From Escherichia phage EP01, in the sequence record OM135583.1: a stretch of DNA of 64,000 bases. The stretch is one strand, 5' to 3'. The notes beneath the pieces are model-generated. The model did no database searches and was not told the origin of the DNA. It saw only the letters and a program-made list of their open reading frames with translations. The stretch's first letter is position 1, and each line of letters starts with the position of its first letter. This document shows, one piece after another, positions 1-6,083 of this stretch. The translations under genes were made by a program, and so were the position numbers.

Positions 1-49
1 CAAATATATTCATAATACCTCCTAAGTATTTATAGAAGGTATTTATAAA

Positions 50-505
50 TTAAAAGAGGTTGTTCATTATTCGGTAAAGTGAAGGACCCATCACATATTG
101 CCACTGAGTACGAGGAATAAGAGCAAAAGCATCCATCTCTGGAATCATAACGCCATCTTTATTTTCAAAATAAGACTCGCAATGGCAATTTCTAAACATC
201 TCATGCTCTACTGGAATCGTATAATAAAACAGATGTAAGTCTTTATTACTAGAATATTTAAATACACCTAGGTCTTCTAGAAGGTCTGGATTATAATTGT
301 TAAAACCAGTCTCTTCTAAACATTCTCTTCGTGCTGCATCTAGTGCGCTTAAATCAGAATTTTCTACGCGGCCCTTTGGGATATCCCAGCGATGTGCCAT
401 CATTCCAGGCTTACGAGAACCAGTAACCCGTCCCATGAATAAATCTTTATCTTCTGTCATAAAGATAATACCAGCTGATAATGTTTTCATTTTAATTTCC
501 TGCAT
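50..505 (-). CDS. nudE: Nudix hydrolase (T4 NudE / e.1-like)
   Basis: 151 aa; Nudix box G-x5-D-x7-RECLEETGF read in translation (GRVENSDLSALDAARRECLEETGF); position matches T4 e.1. Confidence 0.9.
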   Translation of the reverse strand: MQEIKMKTLSAGIIFMTEDKDLFMGRVTGSRKPGMMAHRWDIPKGRVENSDLSALDAARRECLEETGFNNYNPDLLEDLGVFKYSSNKDLHLFYYTIPVEHEMFRNCHCESYFENKDGVMIPEMDAFALIPRTQWQYVMGPSLYRIMNNLF

Positions 506-990
506 TCAGTGATAAAGTTATTTAAATTTTGAGTATATTTCTTTTCATCAAAAATCTTTTGTTGTCTGCGTAGCCGCCATGGCATTTCAATGAACGTGTA
601 CCATATCCCAGATAATATTGCTGCTGTAAAAATATTAACAAGTATGGTTAAAAGAATCCAATCTCCTATTCTGTCCATTGGATTTTTTATAAAAAAGTAA
701 AATACGAATGATGTCACAGGAAAACTAATAATATACCACAGAATCATAATTTTATCTGTGAACCAATCAGCGTTCGTTAACTTAGCGCGGCCATTTTGAA
801 TACATACAAACTTATCATCTGTTGCAGTAGATGGCTTAACTGGTTGATATCCCATTCTAAACTCCCTAATCAGCAAATTTTTCATATCTTCGGAACAGCC
901 ATTCCAGTCAACTCTATCAACTGAAATGCCATCATCCCCGTCATCTAAATCATACCAGCGAGTTTTTAAAATCATTTGATTTTCCTGCAA
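487..990 (-). CDS. hypothetical early membrane protein (T4 e.x region)
   Basis: 167 aa ORF; long hydrophobic segments (ILWYIISFPVTSFVFYFF, ILLTILVNIFTAAILSGIWY); overlaps neighbours (coupled translation). Confidence 0.6.
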   Translation of the reverse strand: MQENQMILKTRWYDLDDGDDGISVDRVDWNGCSEDMKNLLIREFRMGYQPVKPSTATDDKFVCIQNGRAKLTNADWFTDKIMILWYIISFPVTSFVFYFFIKNPMDRIGDWILLTILVNIFTAAILSGIWYTFIEMPWRLRRQQKIFDEKKYTQNLNNFITECRKLK

Positions 991-1346
991 TCACTCACAA
1001 ACTCTTTCATTGATTCATTTTCAATATAAGACATGTAGTTATTATATTCTTTTAATTGTATTTTGTAATCCTTTTTTCTTTGCCAATTTATTTTAAAATT
1101 ATCATAATGAAAATATAAAATGATACTAAAGAATGAAAATAATGAAATTGCTATAGTATAATGAAGTTCACTCCAAACTTCTATTATATCTACTATACCG
1201 CTGACGTTACTGCGGATGTTTAAAATAATACAGTCAATCATTAATCCAATAAGACTACCAGCAAGAGCTGCAGCCAACGCCACAGCAAAAATTAAAAATG
1301 ACTCAGAAAAAGAATATTTGACTTTATTTAGTTTTGGCTTTTGCAT
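972..1346 (-). CDS. hypothetical early membrane protein
   Basis: 124 aa; two hydrophobic helices (FLIFAVALAAALAGSLIGLMI, YTIAISLFSFFSIILYF); start overlaps upstream stop. Confidence 0.6.
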   Translation of the reverse strand: MQKPKLNKVKYSFSESFLIFAVALAAALAGSLIGLMIDCIILNIRSNVSGIVDIIEVWSELHYTIAISLFSFFSIILYFHYDNFKINWQRKKDYKIQLKEYNNYMSYIENESMKEFVSDCRKIK

Positions 1347-1741
1347 CGTGATTCCTTAACAAATTTCATAATTTCATTAAATTCATACATATTTAGTTTA
1401 AGCTGGTGTTCCTTTTTAATCTTTTTACACTGAGCTTTCCATTCACGTACACGTTTACGATAATGCCTTCCTTGATACCAATATCCTACCCAATTTACAG
1501 GTACCAATAAAAATGGAACTACTAATGGAAGAATTAATACTAACAAAAATATTACGCCAGATTCAATATCAGTCATAAAGTCTATAACCATTCCAACAAT
1601 CAATAGAATTACAAATGATATAGCTGTCACAGGACCTATTAATACATCAGTAGGAATTAGCTGGCGCTTTAATTCATACTTCAAAGGTTTACTTGGAAGG
1701 TATAGTGATGGCTTTGACATATTCTCTACATTCCTTAACAA
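1328..1741 (-). CDS. hypothetical early membrane protein
   Basis: 137 aa; hydrophobic core (VTAISFVILLIVGMVIDF, VIFLLVLILPLVVPFLLV); true start may be an internal Met because the 5' end overlaps the upstream ORF. Confidence 0.55.
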   Translation of the reverse strand: MLRNVENMSKPSLYLPSKPLKYELKRQLIPTDVLIGPVTAISFVILLIVGMVIDFMTDIESGVIFLLVLILPLVVPFLLVPVNWVGYWYQGRHYRKRVREWKAQCKKIKKEHQLKLNMYEFNEIMKFVKESRCKSQN

Positions 1742-2297
1742 ATTTTTCTAGTAATAAATCACTTTCAAAATTAGGATTTTCCACTAATTTATCAAAAAGA
1801 TCATCAACAATATTCAAGATATTTCTTTTACTAAGAATACGTTTATTTTCATGCTTCGTTTCAGAATCAACTATAAGAGTAAAGAAATATTTCTTTCCCT
1901 GAAATTTTACTGTAGTATCAATATAGAATAAATTTGACTTTTGTAAGTTACGTTTAAACCATGCGTCACTTAAACTATAAACACCGAGATAATCAAAATC
2001 GTCGTTTAAATAACATACTGTCCATTCAGGAGAAATGAAATCAGTAAATTCAACATCAAAATCACACGTCAATGAATGAATTGATTCAATACTGTTAATA
2101 AGTATTCCAGGACGTATTAAAGACTTTTTACCTCTGGAAAATCTTCCAGAAAGACTTTCATCAGTTTCATATGAAGAACCCCAATAATAATTACGTCCTT
2201 CTGCCATACGTTTAAGAGCATTTAGTAATTGGTCTGGAACATCAACCTGTCTTTGGAACTCTTCAAACATTGAATTGAAATCATTTTGCATTCTCAT
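1689..2297 (-). CDS. hypothetical early protein
   Basis: 202 aa ORF in minus-strand early operon; no recognisable motif. Confidence 0.6.
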   Translation of the reverse strand: MRMQNDFNSMFEEFQRQVDVPDQLLNALKRMAEGRNYYWGSSYETDESLSGRFSRGKKSLIRPGILINSIESIHSLTCDFDVEFTDFISPEWTVCYLNDDFDYLGVYSLSDAWFKRNLQKSNLFYIDTTVKFQGKKYFFTLIVDSETKHENKRILSKRNILNIVDDLFDKLVENPNFESDLLLEKFVKECREYVKAITIPSK

Positions 2298-2318
2298 TCC
2301 TATTTACTCCAAGTAATA

Positions 2319-2332
2319 GGGGCCGAAGCCCC
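2319..2332 (-). terminator. stable tetraloop hairpin GGGGC-UUCG-GCCCC (RNA stabiliser / weak terminator)
   Basis: Plus-strand GGGGCCGAAGCCCC; 5-bp GC stem with UUCG loop on the minus transcript; between two early ORFs. Confidence 0.5.
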
Positions 2333-2338
2333 TTATCA

Positions 2339-2932
2339 TTATTTCAGAGAATTAATGTATTCCTGAACATCGGCAGAGGTGGTTTCAACCCCGGAAATAT
2401 TACCGTTAAAGGTTTCAACTCGAGCAAGAGTATCTTCAATATCAACCTTAGTTAGCGCTGCGATTTCAACTACATCATCAGCAGTACTAATTCCAAGGGC
2501 ATTTGCCGCACGAGTTTCACGGATATATTCCAATTTAACTGCAAGTTCTTGGCGAGCATCATCTAACTCAACTACTTTCTTGGCGATTTCAATTCGCATT
2601 TCAGCATACCCATCAGCTTTAGTAGTCAGCTGTTCAGCTGTTCGACGATATAGCAAGCCAAGTTTAGCATGCATTGTTACATCTTGACCTTCGGAAAGAA
2701 GCTTGCGAATTTCACGCTCTTTTGATTCAGCCTGTTTATTCTTTTCAACAATAAGTTCACGAATACGTTTTTCTTCATTAATAGATTTAACAGAAGCAGT
2801 TTTTAGGTCTTTAATTTTATCAAGTAATTTTGCTGCTGCAGCGGTATACTGTTCTTCAACAGATAGATTTTTAGCCATAGCAGAACCAAGTTTAGTGCGA
2901 ATAAAATCAACAATTTTCTTCAGTGTGTTCAT
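2339..2932 (-). CDS. hypothetical coiled-coil early protein
   Basis: 197 aa; K/E-rich heptad-like sequence throughout; followed by GGGGC-UUCG-GCCCC hairpin. Confidence 0.6.
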
Positions 2933-2975
2933 AGTATTTCCTTAGGTTAATTAAGATTTAAAATCCATGAGAGTA

Positions 2976-3152
2976 TTATACTCCGGATAGTTTGTAAACT
3001 ATTTCAACATCGCCTTTTGCTGCTTTATAACCTTCAGCCCAAGATACAACCGAGTTTTTATCTGAAGATTCAAATTCTGGCATTGGACTTTCATCAATGT
3101 TCACACAGTATGTTTCTTCATTTTCGTCAAACCAAATAGTTAAAGTAGTCAT
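2976..3152 (-). CDS. small hypothetical ORF (about 58 aa), below the ORF-track cutoff
   Basis: Found by manual reverse-complement reading; ATG at 3152 preceded by GGAGAAATAA Shine-Dalgarno; degenerate promoter/stem-loop cassette copy upstream (3153-3221). Confidence 0.35.
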   Translation of the reverse strand: MTTLTIWFDENEETYCVNIDESPMPEFESSDKNSVVSWAEGYKAAKGDVEIVYKLSGV

Positions 3153-3221
3153 TTATTTCTCCGCTTCTGTGATTGTTTTGATAAGTCTATAATAACACCG
3201 TCCTTGGTGTTTGTACACCAC

Positions 3222-3539
3222 TTATTTCATATTATTGAAATATTCTTCTGCGATTTCATCGTTATCGTGGTAAACTTTAGAAGACAGTTTAACATAACCT
3301 TCAGCAGTGAACATATTAATCACAACTTTTACAGTATACCACTGACCGTCTTCATTACCCATTACTGCGTAAGTTTCAAACATCGGATGGTCAGGACCGA
3401 TGACTTTAATATCATTCACTGTACGACCGAAATCTTCTGAAACGCATTTCATAAAGAAGTTGAACAGTTCGCCGTAATTATCCATTTCATTCTCCAAGTT
3501 GTTTTTCTGTATCAGTAGTTGATAGTTGTATAGTACCAT
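3222..3539 (-). CDS. hypothetical early protein
   Basis: 105 aa ORF; early promoter cassette immediately upstream (3530-3559). Confidence 0.6.
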   Translation of the reverse strand: MVLYNYQLLIQKNNLENEMDNYGELFNFFMKCVSEDFGRTVNDIKVIGPDHPMFETYAVMGNEDGQWYTVKVVINMFTAEGYVKLSSKVYHDNDEIAEEYFNNMK

Positions 3540-3559
3540 GGAAGAACGGGGATGTAAAC
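3530..3559 (-). promoter_or_regulatory. early promoter (TTTACA -35, 17-18 bp spacer, TACTAT -10) inside promoter/stem-loop cassette
   Basis: Plus-strand GTAAAC at 3554-3559 and ATAGTA at 3530-3535; same architecture as the IP-locus cassettes. Confidence 0.6.
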
Positions 3560-3692
3560 AGTTTTGTGAAAAAAATTTTTTAAAAAGTTTTAGGGAATTC
3601 TAGGACAGGGAGGGGCAATTAAAGGATAGGATAATATATTATAAAGGGTAGAAACTAAATGATTCTTAGAGAGGTCCAGAAAGGCCTAGATA

Positions 3693-3719
3693 CCAAAAAG
3701 CCCTATCATTTAGATAGGG
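3693..3719 (-). terminator. rho-independent terminator
   Basis: Stem CCCTATC/GATAGGG followed on the minus transcript by CUUUUUGG. Confidence 0.6.
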
Positions 3720-3727
3720 ATTTAAAA

Positions 3728-4291
3728 TTATTTATCTAGTTTAGCTATTATAGCTTCTGCGGCAGCTTTTAGTTTAGATGCGGTGTTAATACGATTTTTA
3801 ATTTCAGTATACGCATCGCCAAGAACGTCAAGGCTATCAGAATAAACGCTTACACTATTGCGTTCGCTATTTGAAATAGAACCTTTAGTTTTACGATCAA
3901 AATCGATGTACACGTCTTGAAGATCACGGGCTGCCTTCTTTGCATCATCCAATGCATCAAGAGCTTTATTCAAAGCATTAACGTATTTTTTAGTGTCGAA
4001 CATATTCTTAGAAATTTTAACAGGCGCACGTTCAGGAGTAGCTAAGGCAGATTTAGGAACCTGAGCGCCAGATGCCAGTTTCTTAGAAATTTTGAAAAAT
4101 GCTTTATTGAATTTATTTTCTTGACTCATCGTAAAAGAACTATTATCAATGTTATACATTTCAATAGCTTTAGCTTTCCACTTAAGAAAATCGCCACGGT
4201 CTTTTGGGTCCAATTGGAAGAATACTTTAGTAAGTTCTGCTTCAGATGGTAATTTTGCTGCTTCGGTTAAAAATTCGGCATAAGTTTTCAT
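3728..4291 (-). CDS. internal-protein-like protein with N-terminal capsid targeting sequence
   Basis: 187 aa; N-terminus MKTYAEFLTEAA matches the T4 IP capsid-targeting consensus MKTYQEFIAEA with a predicted prohead-protease site after ..TE; followed by rho-independent terminator. Confidence 0.6.
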   Translation of the reverse strand: MKTYAEFLTEAAKLPSEAELTKVFFQLDPKDRGDFLKWKAKAIEMYNIDNSSFTMSQENKFNKAFFKISKKLASGAQVPKSALATPERAPVKISKNMFDTKKYVNALNKALDALDDAKKAARDLQDVYIDFDRKTKGSISNSERNSVSVYSDSLDVLGDAYTEIKNRINTASKLKAAAEAIIAKLDK

Positions 4292-4728: not shown

Positions 4729-4802
4729 TCGAGGCAGAAGGATTCTAACCTTCAACCAACGGATTAGAAATCCGTTGCTCTATACAATTGAGCTATGCCT
4801 CG
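4729..4802 (-). tRNA. tRNA-Arg (anticodon UCU)
   Basis: Acceptor stem halves 4730-4736/4796-4802; T-arm 4737-4753; anticodon loop UUUCUAA. Confidence 0.8.
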
Positions 4803-5470
4803 TAGTTAAAATTCATTTTTCGACCTTTAAACCATCCTTCTGGAATTGGGTCAGTTTTCTTAATACGTTTAGAAACTTTTTCATCTAATGAATGAATCCA
4901 CATCATACCAAATTGGGAATTCTTTTCACCTTGTTGGTGTTTATTTCTGGCGTGAGATTCTTTCATTTTATTAATAGTTTCAGGAGTATGGGTCTTACCC
5001 AAGAAAGATTTAGTATTTAAAAATTTCTCTCTATACTTAGGATTATCCCAAAGCTGTTTAAACCTTTCTGAACCCATTTTACGGTATTTTTCTTTAAGGT
5101 CTGGGTCGTTCTCAAATCTGATTTTAAAAGCGGCAGCTCCTTTTAAGGAAGCTTCTTTCTTTTTATCCAAATATTCTTTAGTGTTTAAATGGCCCCAACC
5201 ACCTTCACCACCTAATTTCAAATTATAAACATCAGGGCGCTTTAAAAACTCTTCAGTCACAATATTCTTTTCTGACTCAAACATAGAGGTTTTATCGTCA
5301 AAGAACTCTAATATTTCTTTAGAAAAATTTTCTATACCATACTTGTCTTGGGCTCTTTTTAATAATTTACCAGAACCCATATATCCATCATCTAAATTTT
5401 CGGTAGAATGAGCGCCTATATAGATTTTATTATTAATTTTATTTGTTATTTTATAAATGTAATGGAACAT
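4793..5470 (-). CDS. segB: GIY-YIG homing endonuclease (SegB-like)
   Basis: 225 aa; N-terminal GIY-x10-YIG module (HYIYKITNKINNKIYIGAH); sits inside the tRNA cluster as in T4. Confidence 0.8.
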   Translation of the reverse strand: MFHYIYKITNKINNKIYIGAHSTENLDDGYMGSGKLLKRAQDKYGIENFSKEILEFFDDKTSMFESEKNIVTEEFLKRPDVYNLKLGGEGGWGHLNTKEYLDKKKEASLKGAAAFKIRFENDPDLKEKYRKMGSERFKQLWDNPKYREKFLNTKSFLGKTHTPETINKMKESHARNKHQQGEKNSQFGMMWIHSLDEKVSKRIKKTDPIPEGWFKGRKMNFNYEA

Positions 5471-5511
5471 AAATATCTCCTATTTCTAAGAGTATTTATG
5501 CTCCCAAAATA

Positions 5512-5583
5512 TGGCCCTGGGTGGAATTGAACCACCATCTGGCGATTATGAGTCGCTTGCTTGAACCTTCCAGCTACAGGGCC
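5512..5583 (-). tRNA. tRNA-Ile (anticodon CAU, Met-type anticodon presumably modified to read AUA)
   Basis: Acceptor halves 5513-5519/5577-5583; T-arm GGTGG-AATTGAA-CCACC; anticodon loop CUCAUAA. Confidence 0.8.
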
Positions 5584-5589
5584 TTGATA

Positions 5590-5662
5590 TGCTGATTGAC
5601 GGAATCGAACCGCCGACGTCCTCATTACAAGTGAGTTGCTCTACCTACTGAGCTAAATCAGC
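5590..5662 (-). tRNA. tRNA-Thr (anticodon UGU)
   Basis: Acceptor halves 5591-5597/5656-5662; anticodon loop CUUGUAA. Confidence 0.8.
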
Positions 5663-5669
5663 GAAATTA

Positions 5670-5756
5670 CGGAGGCGATAGGATTTGAACCTATGAGTCG
5701 CCGGAGCGACTGCCGGTTTTCAAGACCGGTGCATTAAACCACTCTGCCACGCCTCC
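5670..5756 (-). tRNA. tRNA-Ser (anticodon UGA)
   Basis: Acceptor halves 5671-5677/5750-5756; long variable arm; anticodon loop CUUGAAA. Confidence 0.8.
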
Positions 5757-5758
5757 AG

Positions 5759-5832
5759 TCTCCGCGGCAGGATTTGAACCTGCGACATTCTGCTCCCAAA
5801 GCAGACGCTCTACCAAACTGAGCTACACGGAG
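5759..5832 (-). tRNA. tRNA-Pro (anticodon UGG)
   Basis: Acceptor halves 5760-5766/5826-5832 (one G-U pair); T-arm GCAGG-ATTTGAA-CCTGC; anticodon loop UUUGGGA. Confidence 0.8.
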
Positions 5833-5844
5833 TAAATTAAATTT

Positions 5845-5916
<72 letters not shown>

Positions 5917-5925
5917 AAACTTTGG

Positions 5926-6009
5926 TACGAGAAGTGGGACTCGAACCCACAAGGAAATCATTCCGCAGCATTTTAAGTGCTGTGCCTTTACCAATTTGAC
6001 CATTCTCGC
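5926..6009 (-). tRNA. tRNA-Leu (anticodon UAA)
   Basis: Acceptor halves 5927-5933/6003-6009; long variable arm; T-arm GTGGG-ACTCGAA-CCCAC; anticodon loop CUUAAAA. Confidence 0.8.
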
Positions 6010-6010
6010 G

Positions 6011-6083
6011 CTGGGAATAAAGGACTCGAACCTTTGCATCCTGGAATCAAAATCCAGTGCCTTACCAACTTGGCTAATTCCCA
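6011..6083 (-). tRNA. tRNA-Gln (anticodon UUG)
   Basis: Acceptor halves 6012-6018/6077-6083; T-arm AAAGG-ACTCGAA-CCTTT; anticodon loop UUUUGAU. Confidence 0.8.

Follow-up and report, generated by a model that had tools for sequence, protein, structure and literature searches.

The 64,000-nucleotide stretch of Escherichia phage EP01 analysed here (sequence record OM135583.1; the whole stretch is called the window) carries, between positions 487 and 1741, three consecutive genes that are identified by sequence as orthologues of phage T4 e.2, e.3 and e.4. These genes are already known from T4, with function unassigned, and their recovery is a rediscovery of annotated genes. In the present analysis they form a family: each product is predicted to be a two-helix hairpin of the inner membrane whose two ends face the cytoplasm, the three are distant paralogues of one another, and their predicted sequences share with the soluble product of the neighbouring gene e.5 a C-terminal motif, aromatic-[IV]-x-x-C/S-[RK]. 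As far as our searches show, neither the paralogy, nor the tail motif shared with e.5, nor the variable copy number of the hairpin genes behind the e.6-e.5 pair, nor a possible PspA-like e.6 has been described earlier. The three genes are laid out as follows (TM, transmembrane helix, located by hydropathy; aa, amino acids; nt, nucleotides).

487 to 975, minus strand: e.2, 162 aa; N-terminal domain of acidic character, predicted to be cytoplasmic (aa 1-75); TM1 aa 76-96 (nt 688-750) and TM2 aa 106-128 (nt 592-660); then a basic tail that closes with NFITECRKLK, motif at nt 496-516.
972 to 1346, minus strand: e.3, 124 aa; N-terminal tail beginning MQKPKL; TM1 aa 16-38 (nt 1233-1301) and TM2 aa 61-80 (nt 1107-1166); then a basic tail that closes with EFVSDCRKIK, motif at nt 981-1001.
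1328 to 1720, minus strand: e.4, 130 aa; N-terminal tail MSKPSLYLPSKP; TM1 aa 28-46 (nt 1583-1639) and TM2 aa 55-77 (nt 1490-1558); then a basic tail that has EWKAQCKK internally (nt 1421-1441) and FVKESRC at its end (nt 1343-1363).

An earlier note on this DNA had described three consecutive, overlapping open reading frames (ORFs) for small early membrane proteins, and in this it is borne out, all three lying on the minus strand. Of the lengths it gave, 167, 124 and 137 aa, the second is correct; the other two arose because the mechanical ORF list started e.2 and e.4 at the first upstream TTG, and the true ATG starts, which are used by homologues and preceded by AGGAAA or AAGGAA, give 162 and 130 aa. 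Overlaps occur at every junction, with 32 nt between e.5 and e.4, 19 nt between e.4 and e.3, and the 4 nt of an ATGA at both e.3/e.2 and e.2/nudE. From these real overlaps of stops and starts we infer translational coupling of e.2-e.4, which the note had stated outright. Where it had allowed two or three hydrophobic helices per protein, Kyte-Doolittle hydropathy with a 19-residue window gives exactly two peaks in each (heights 1.76-3.08), corresponding to segments of about 20 residues, and never three. Lysine and arginine are concentrated in the tails and scarce in the loop (counts for N-terminal tail/loop/C-terminal tail are 5/0/15 in e.4, 4/1/10 in e.3 and 11/2/9 in e.2), and for this reason a hairpin with both ends inside is predicted; hydropathy and the positive-inside charge pattern together back the predicted inner-membrane location. 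The clustering is more than chance would give, since two separate hydrophobic peaks are found in only 3 of the 69 ORFs of the window that start with ATG and have at least 90 aa, and these three, e.2, e.3 and e.4, adjoin one another. The ratio of nonsynonymous to synonymous substitution rates (dN/dS) between window and T4, calculated from small counts, is 0.27 for e.3 and 0.44 for e.4, and therefore both evolve as coding sequence.

The orthology rests on several concordant comparisons. The window belongs to a T4-like phage of the genus Tequatrovirus and is 95-98% identical to its best relatives (KIT06, ECO07P1, RB14 and others). Its bases 1-3600 have matches in 671 phage records, annotated as lysozyme, nudix hydrolase, e.2, e.4, e.5 and e.6, and comparison with the T4 reference gives the order e, nudE, e.2-e.8, stable RNAs/tRNAs and segB on a single strand, which is the minus strand in the window. 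Each protein matches a PHROG profile over its whole length (e.2, PHROG 2203, E = 4.6e-80; e.3, PHROG 2330, E = 1.6e-61; e.4, PHROG 2604, E = 3e-71), the T4 proteins belong to PHROGs 2203/35263, 2330 and 2604, and the position is also that of the orthologous groups, with e.2-e.4 between nudE and e.5 on the same strand and with overlapping boundaries. The T4 proteins (NP_049738-40) are annotated 'conserved hypothetical, predicted membrane protein'; the gene order from nudE to e.5 is the same in T4 and the window, and the e.3 and e.4 proteins are 83-91% identical. Close homologues of the three, at 80-98% identity, occur in T4-like phages only, those of e.2 having 162 aa and 85-96% identity. In e.2, the T4 reference differs from the window: the window gene is intact and overlaps nudE, whereas the reference product has 102 aa and one transmembrane helix. 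In the reference (2153-2461 of the reference stretch, against 487-975 of the window) a -1 change in a run of six A residues leads to a stop, and a compensating +1 change lies 80 nt further on, leaving the downstream frame and the motif intact but unannotated. Most relatives carry, like the window, the intact 162-aa e.2. In GenBank, the products of e.3, e.4 and e.6 homologues go by names that include 'sulfurtransferase', 'host specificity protein', 'DNA primase', 'head outer capsid protein' and 'serine decarboxylase'; these names have no support from Pfam, NCBIfam or PHROGs, look like mis-annotation that has been propagated, and are rejected here as annotation noise.

Consider now the tail motif. 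In its strict form, F[IV]x[ED][CS]R, it occurs four times among the 45,785 aa of all six-frame ORFs of the window, and each of the four is C-terminal, in the proteins of the successive genes e.5, e.4, e.3 and e.2. It is kept in orthologues from Mosig-, Gapriver-, Jiaoda-, Kanagawa- and Winklervirus. The internal EWKAQCKK of e.4, which BLAST aligns with the termini of e.3 and e.2, lies off any gene junction, and its W94 and C98 are invariant across genera, together with L6, Y7, P9, P12, R88, F120, K122, E123 and R125 of the same protein. In e.5, whose orthologues diverge down to 18-20% identity, the C-terminal [LIF]xxF[IV]xxC[RK] is invariant, and F186, C190, R191 and E192 are among only nine columns that are invariant across genera. 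The motif also persists in the e.5 of an Aeromonas phage, where a gap of 85 nt follows the gene, and in the e.5 of RB43, where no hairpin gene follows. Since it is thus kept without an overlapping gene and as an internal copy in e.4, the motif reflects a constraint on the peptide and not merely a ribosome-binding site. The codons that specify it differ between copies, and in e.3 and e.2 of the window the Shine-Dalgarno sequence falls within C-R-K, yet the upstream F-[VI]-x-[DE] is kept. At the level of DNA, the four gene junctions carry repeated segments.

487 to 516, minus strand: junction cassette B, copy 1 (e.2/nudE), a 30-nt repeat 80% identical to 972-1001.
972 to 1001, minus strand: junction cassette B, copy 2 (e.3/e.2), the repeat partner of 487-516.
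1351 to 1366, minus strand: junction cassette A, copy 1 (e.4/e.3), 16 nt, AAATTTGTTAAGGAAT, identical to 1730-1745.
1730 to 1745, minus strand: junction cassette A, copy 2 (e.5/e.4), identical to 1351-1366.

Conservation is distributed unevenly along the hairpin proteins. Within Tequatrovirus, the tails, which are predicted to be cytoplasmic, have a mean pairwise identity of 86-95%, against 45-83% for the transmembrane helices and loop. In e.4 the helices and the periplasmic loop fall to 45-67% mean identity, with indels and distinct allelic types. A variable membrane core beside conserved tails fits a role in an arms race, and it also fits relaxed constraint.

The relationship among the three proteins emerges when their profiles are built from alignments that include orthologues from other genera. 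The e.4 family then matches the e.3 family in hhalign with a probability of 93% (E = 3e-7) over 82 columns, from TM1 through the tail, and between e.2 and the e.3 family the probability is 90% (E = 1.6e-6), the matched stretch comprising the final part of TM2 and the tail. When the alignments are restricted to close homologues, with an effective number of sequences (Neff) of about 1.2-1.6, hhalign gives no signal of paralogy. How such an array may be reshaped is exemplified by protein P0143 of Escherichia phage vB_EcoM-UFV05, in which e.4 and e.2 are naturally fused in frame (e.4::e.2) into a product of 106 aa, the joint being a Pro-Val-Thr that the two proteins share within TM1; at both corresponding sites the window reads CCTGTGACA. 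The fusion has lost e.3 and most of e.4 and e.2 and keeps two helices. As it occurred at a short repeat, deletions between short repeats do reshape the hairpin array.

The hairpin genes also have a fixed genomic setting. In the Straboviridae examined the pair e.6-e.5 is conserved throughout, with e.6 in 1106 phage records, and the hairpin genes, in zero to three copies, always follow it. The pair, the stem-loop that lies within it and the number of hairpin genes behind it are listed below.

1689 to 2297, minus strand: e.5, a soluble protein of 202 aa; 32-nt overlap with e.4; tail KFVKECRE at nt 1722-1742.
2318 to 2333, minus strand: stem-loop rich in G+C that separates e.6 from e.5 and reads AGGGGCTTCGGCCCCT on the coding strand; the scan placed its terminator-like call on the plus strand.
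2339 to 2932, minus strand: e.6, a helical-hairpin protein of 197 aa, the conserved upstream neighbour, with weak resemblance to PspA/Vipp1.
No hairpin gene after e.6-e.5: Aeromonas Biquartavirus and RB43.
One hairpin gene: Kanagawavirus and Winklervirus.
Two hairpin genes: Mosigvirus and Gaprivervirus.
Three hairpin genes: Tequatrovirus and Jiaodavirus.

Except for Jiaodavirus, the genera examined outside Tequatrovirus have, after the hairpin genes, an array of two to five small soluble paralogues, each ending W[VI]SSSxxC or WxPSSC (the RB69ORF139c/137c/136c family), which is absent from the window. This array, at 3231-4025 in locus L003, 3191-4457 in L004, 3191-4212 in L006, 4711-5790 in L007 and 4832-5391 in L008, represents a second tandem family in which a C-terminal cysteine motif is conserved.

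The product of e.6 is probably, though not provenly, a PspA/Vipp1-like protein. A single-sequence AlphaFold2 (AF2) model, with a predicted local distance difference test score (pLDDT) of 75 overall and above 85 for residues 30-135, has a long helical hairpin and a third helix. When this model is compared with PDB by Foldseek, the top ten hits are all Vipp1/PspA chains, aligned over their full length with E values from 4e-4 to 1e-2 and 15-20% identity; the matches in BFVD include, with a TM-score of 0.61, a phage protein that bears the annotation PspA/IM30. When eight e.6 orthologues are combined in a profile, it matches Vipp1 collinearly, residues 3-142 to 3-144, with weak E values of 0.13-0.86. 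In hhalign, e.6 against E. coli PspA, the latter sequence entered by hand, was not significant, and sequence searches of PDB with e.5 and e.6 gave nothing meaningful.

Taken as a group, e.2-e.4 are accessory genes of T4-like phages that are transcribed early and can be dispensed with. That they are early, as the note had held, is supported by a candidate promoter upstream of e.8 and by the classification of the T4 e.2-e.5 transcripts as early (PMC9697503 supplements).

About 3530 to 3558, minus strand: candidate early promoter of the T4 type upstream of e.8, reading TTTACA-N17-TACTAT and preceded by an A/T-rich tract, a consensus match only.

A generic sigma-70 scan performs at chance level (31 sites against 26.5 expected), and the site upstream of e.8 is the only one that looks T4-early-like by eye. 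Mass spectrometry of T4 infection detected all three proteins, e.4 early, e.2 middle and e.3 late (PMC9697503 supplements). With respect to fitness, CRISPRi-ART scores T4 e.2-e.6 as 'Not Fit', i.e., without fitness effect (PMC11879866), and in a T4 transposon-sequencing study the TA sites hit were 27/27 in e.2, 37/37 in e.3, 42/43 in e.4, 52/53 in e.5 and 43/43 in e.6 (bioRxiv 10.1101/2025.11.20.689424). Since nearly every TA site tolerates insertion, e.2-e.6 are non-essential in T4, a result on which both of these genome-wide screens agree.

Family searches place the hairpins apart from characterised proteins. Scans of e.2-e.6 against Pfam and NCBIfam returned chance-level matches only, with no Pfam family at E <= 1 beyond chance and none above cut-off in NCBIfam, and no sequence match in Pfam, NCBIfam or PDB ties the hairpins to Imm, to holins or antiholins or to any other characterised family. 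In particular, Pfam and NCBIfam gave no assignment to superinfection-immunity families or to PspB, PspC or LiaI, and Pfam none to holin T, RI or RIII, nor do the genes lie in a late or lysis-cassette context. PHROGs labels them 'membrane protein' or 'unknown function', and homologues carry the precomputed labels PF26896 and PF26873. A profile search with e.4 among 1.84 billion representative proteins gave seven clusters, of which the identifiable ones are T4-like variants or fragments; there being no bacterial homologue among these, function is not transferable by homology. The hairpin genes were found in genera of the Tevenvirinae only, with e.4 detected by tblastn at about 55% identity in Mosigvirus and at 25-32% in Gaprivervirus, Jiaodavirus and a Yersinia phage. 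In the literature we found no functional study of e.2-e.4, which belong to a large block of T4 early genes still without assigned function after 60 years.

With these premises, the most likely mechanism, advanced tentatively, is that the hairpins are inner-membrane anchors for e.5, for e.6 or for a partner common to both. The conserved cytoplasmic tails of e.2-e.4 would then be docking peptides, and the hairpins would act as anchors or receptors that early in infection bring e.5, the PspA/Vipp1-like e.6 or a host factor recognising the motif to the cytoplasmic face of the membrane. Such docking would resemble the recruitment of PspA-family proteins by LiaI or PspB/PspC, for which there is precedent in that LiaI anchors LiaH and PspB/PspC are partners of PspA (PMC9239133). 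Adaptation to the envelope of the host would fall to the more variable core, embedded in the membrane and exposed to the periplasm, and the likely outcome would be upkeep or modification of the membrane of the infected cell; from this would follow, as a proposed explanation, that the genes are dispensable on laboratory hosts. The genomic context supports membrane anchoring at least as strongly as it supports roles in exclusion, lysis inhibition or anti-defence, which the earlier note had put forward and for which the argument is one of analogy. A more specific version, to which we give a rather low probability, is that T4-like phages have a Psp/ESCRT-III-like membrane-maintenance module of their own, in which a divergent PspA/Vipp1 (e.6), e.5 and one to three hairpin anchors would dock mutually, or on one host target, by way of the F[IV]xxC[RK] tail and keep the inner membrane energised. 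If the hairpins do serve as anchors, T-even phages would be shown to have a Psp-like system of their own by which they actively manage the integrity of the host's inner membrane, and a new short docking motif would be defined. Three anonymous ORFs have become one testable unit, a paralogous hairpin family with a shared tail motif, tied to the conserved e.6-e.5 pair.

Several observations weigh against this explanation. The K-E of the motif is encoded by AAGGAR, the Shine-Dalgarno sequence of the next gene, and the terminal K by the AAA that precedes the TGA of the ATGA overlap; because the motif overlaps these signals, part of its conservation is due to dual coding. The direct hhalign comparison of e.2 with e.4 is not significant, and the hhalign scores that are significant span hydrophobic segments, which can inflate similarity. 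An AF2 monomer model of e.2, built from a shallow alignment, has a pLDDT of 55 and is too poor for a fold search. The hairpins have no sequence similarity to PspB, PspC or LiaI. Finally, the stem-loop parts e.6 from e.5, and there is no translational coupling between the two; a terminator is annotated at the equivalent position in PhAPEC2.

A different possibility is that the hairpin genes have no common function, but are independent accessory ORFs spread by duplication or recombination at a reusable cassette of gene end and ribosome-binding site, with the motif as a by-product of cassette and dual coding. The junction repeats (e.5/e.4 and e.4/e.3 with 16 nt in common, e.3/e.2 and e.2/nudE with 30 nt that are 80% identical), the coincidence of K-E and terminal K with Shine-Dalgarno and ATGA, deletions and fusions at short repeats as in P0143, and the varying copy number are what such a process would produce. 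It does not account for a motif that is kept without overlap in two e.5 proteins, those of RB43 and the Aeromonas phage, as well as inside e.4 (EWxxxC), with different codon use in different copies, nor for the conservation of whole tails of 35-50 aa at 90-95% identity, far exceeding the overlaps, and the retention of orthologues across genera at 25-55% identity. We regard the absence of a common function as rather unlikely. A connection with lysis or its timing, with the hairpins as holin or antiholin partners or as agents of lysis inhibition tied to the downstream gene e, is suggested by their small size, their membrane character and their place directly upstream of nudE and e in the same direction of transcription. 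This we find very improbable: the hairpins are early genes without similarity to holin or antiholin families, while gene e has its own late promoters (TATAAATA, 40-47 and 27-34, minus strand), and since the hairpin genes of Mosigvirus and Gaprivervirus lie away from e and nudE, the linkage to gene e is not conserved.

Two further alternatives concern exclusion and counter-defence. The earlier note had named superinfection exclusion among the possible roles, and the hairpins might, by analogy with Imm and Sp, alter the inner membrane or the periplasm and so block DNA entry of later T-even phages. In favour of this, the proteins are of small size, are made early and have a predicted inner-membrane location, the genes are dispensable in single infection, and variation is greatest in the membrane and periplasmic core (45-67% mean identity in e.4), as would be the case if that core touched a phage component under rapid evolution. 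But T4 possesses Imm and Sp already, encoded at other sites of its genome, the hairpins have no Pfam similarity, superinfection-immunity families included, dN/dS of the core is below 1 (0.39-0.64), and the best-conserved parts are cytoplasmic tails in common with a soluble protein, which a periplasmic or entry-blocking role leaves unexplained; exclusion is held to be quite unlikely. Alternatively, the hairpins might be needed on particular hosts only, countering membrane-acting abortive infection or variation of the host envelope much as RIIA/RIIB counter RexAB. In keeping with this, the genes are non-essential on K-12 yet under purifying selection across genera, their copy number and alleles vary between phages as is typical of host-range and anti-defence loci, and laboratory T4 carries a disrupted e.2. 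However, the HIDEN-SEQ text of the transposon-sequencing study names no e.x gene as conditionally essential against RexAB, RnlAB, CBASS, DarTG1/2 or Mokosh hosts or on uropathogenic or clinical isolates, and the one conditional table examined gives q = 1.0 for e.2 to e.6 (bioRxiv 10.1101/2025.11.20.689424). Counter-defence is an unlikely role as well.

Further features lie at the same end of the window, outside the hairpin genes and the e.6-e.5 pair. The last gene of the overlapping string is the following.

50 to 490, minus strand: nudE (e.1), Nudix hydrolase, with ATGA overlap onto e.2.

Beyond it lies the lysozyme gene e, which has its ATG at 13-11 (minus strand) and runs off the window edge. 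The two boxes of T4 late-promoter consensus, at 27-34 and 40-47, are just upstream of it; gene e is transcribed both early and late, and the late boxes fit that. In the other direction, between e.8 and the tRNA/stable-RNA region, a 187-aa ORF at 3728-4291 (minus strand) is followed by a terminator-like hairpin at 3701-3719; at the corresponding place the annotation of the T4 reference is without a coding sequence. Rfam identifies eight tRNA genes clustered at 4729-6083 (minus strand), where a GIY-YIG-type ORF of 225 aa at 4793-5470 (minus strand), in the position of T4 segB (222 aa in T4), splits the first tRNA from the other seven, an arrangement as in T4.

It remains to set the hairpins beside systems that are already understood. 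Imm and Sp of T4 are, like them, small, early, membrane-located and dispensable proteins. They are encoded at a different locus, no sequence relationship to e.2-e.4 was detected with Pfam, and the conserved parts of e.2-e.4 are cytoplasmic tails shared with a soluble protein. The gene boundaries recall the PeSLs of T4-type genomes, described in PMC2839356 as early-promoter stem-loops between genes, short repeats at gene boundaries that flank variable accessory ORFs; here repeated cassettes likewise flank the hairpin genes, with the difference that they lie inside coding sequence (gene end, Shine-Dalgarno sequence and start) and encode a conserved peptide. The Psp systems differ from the present locus in that here a soluble e.5 and a stem-loop stand between e.6 and the hairpins, and the assignment of e.6 to PspA is itself uncertain. 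Their likeness is in the architecture: LiaI of B. subtilis and PspB and PspC of E. coli and Yersinia are small membrane proteins, encoded beside a PspA/Vipp1-like hairpin protein, that recruit it to the membrane (PMC9239133), and in the window proteins of 124-162 aa with two predicted transmembrane helices are encoded downstream of the putatively PspA/Vipp1-like e.6.

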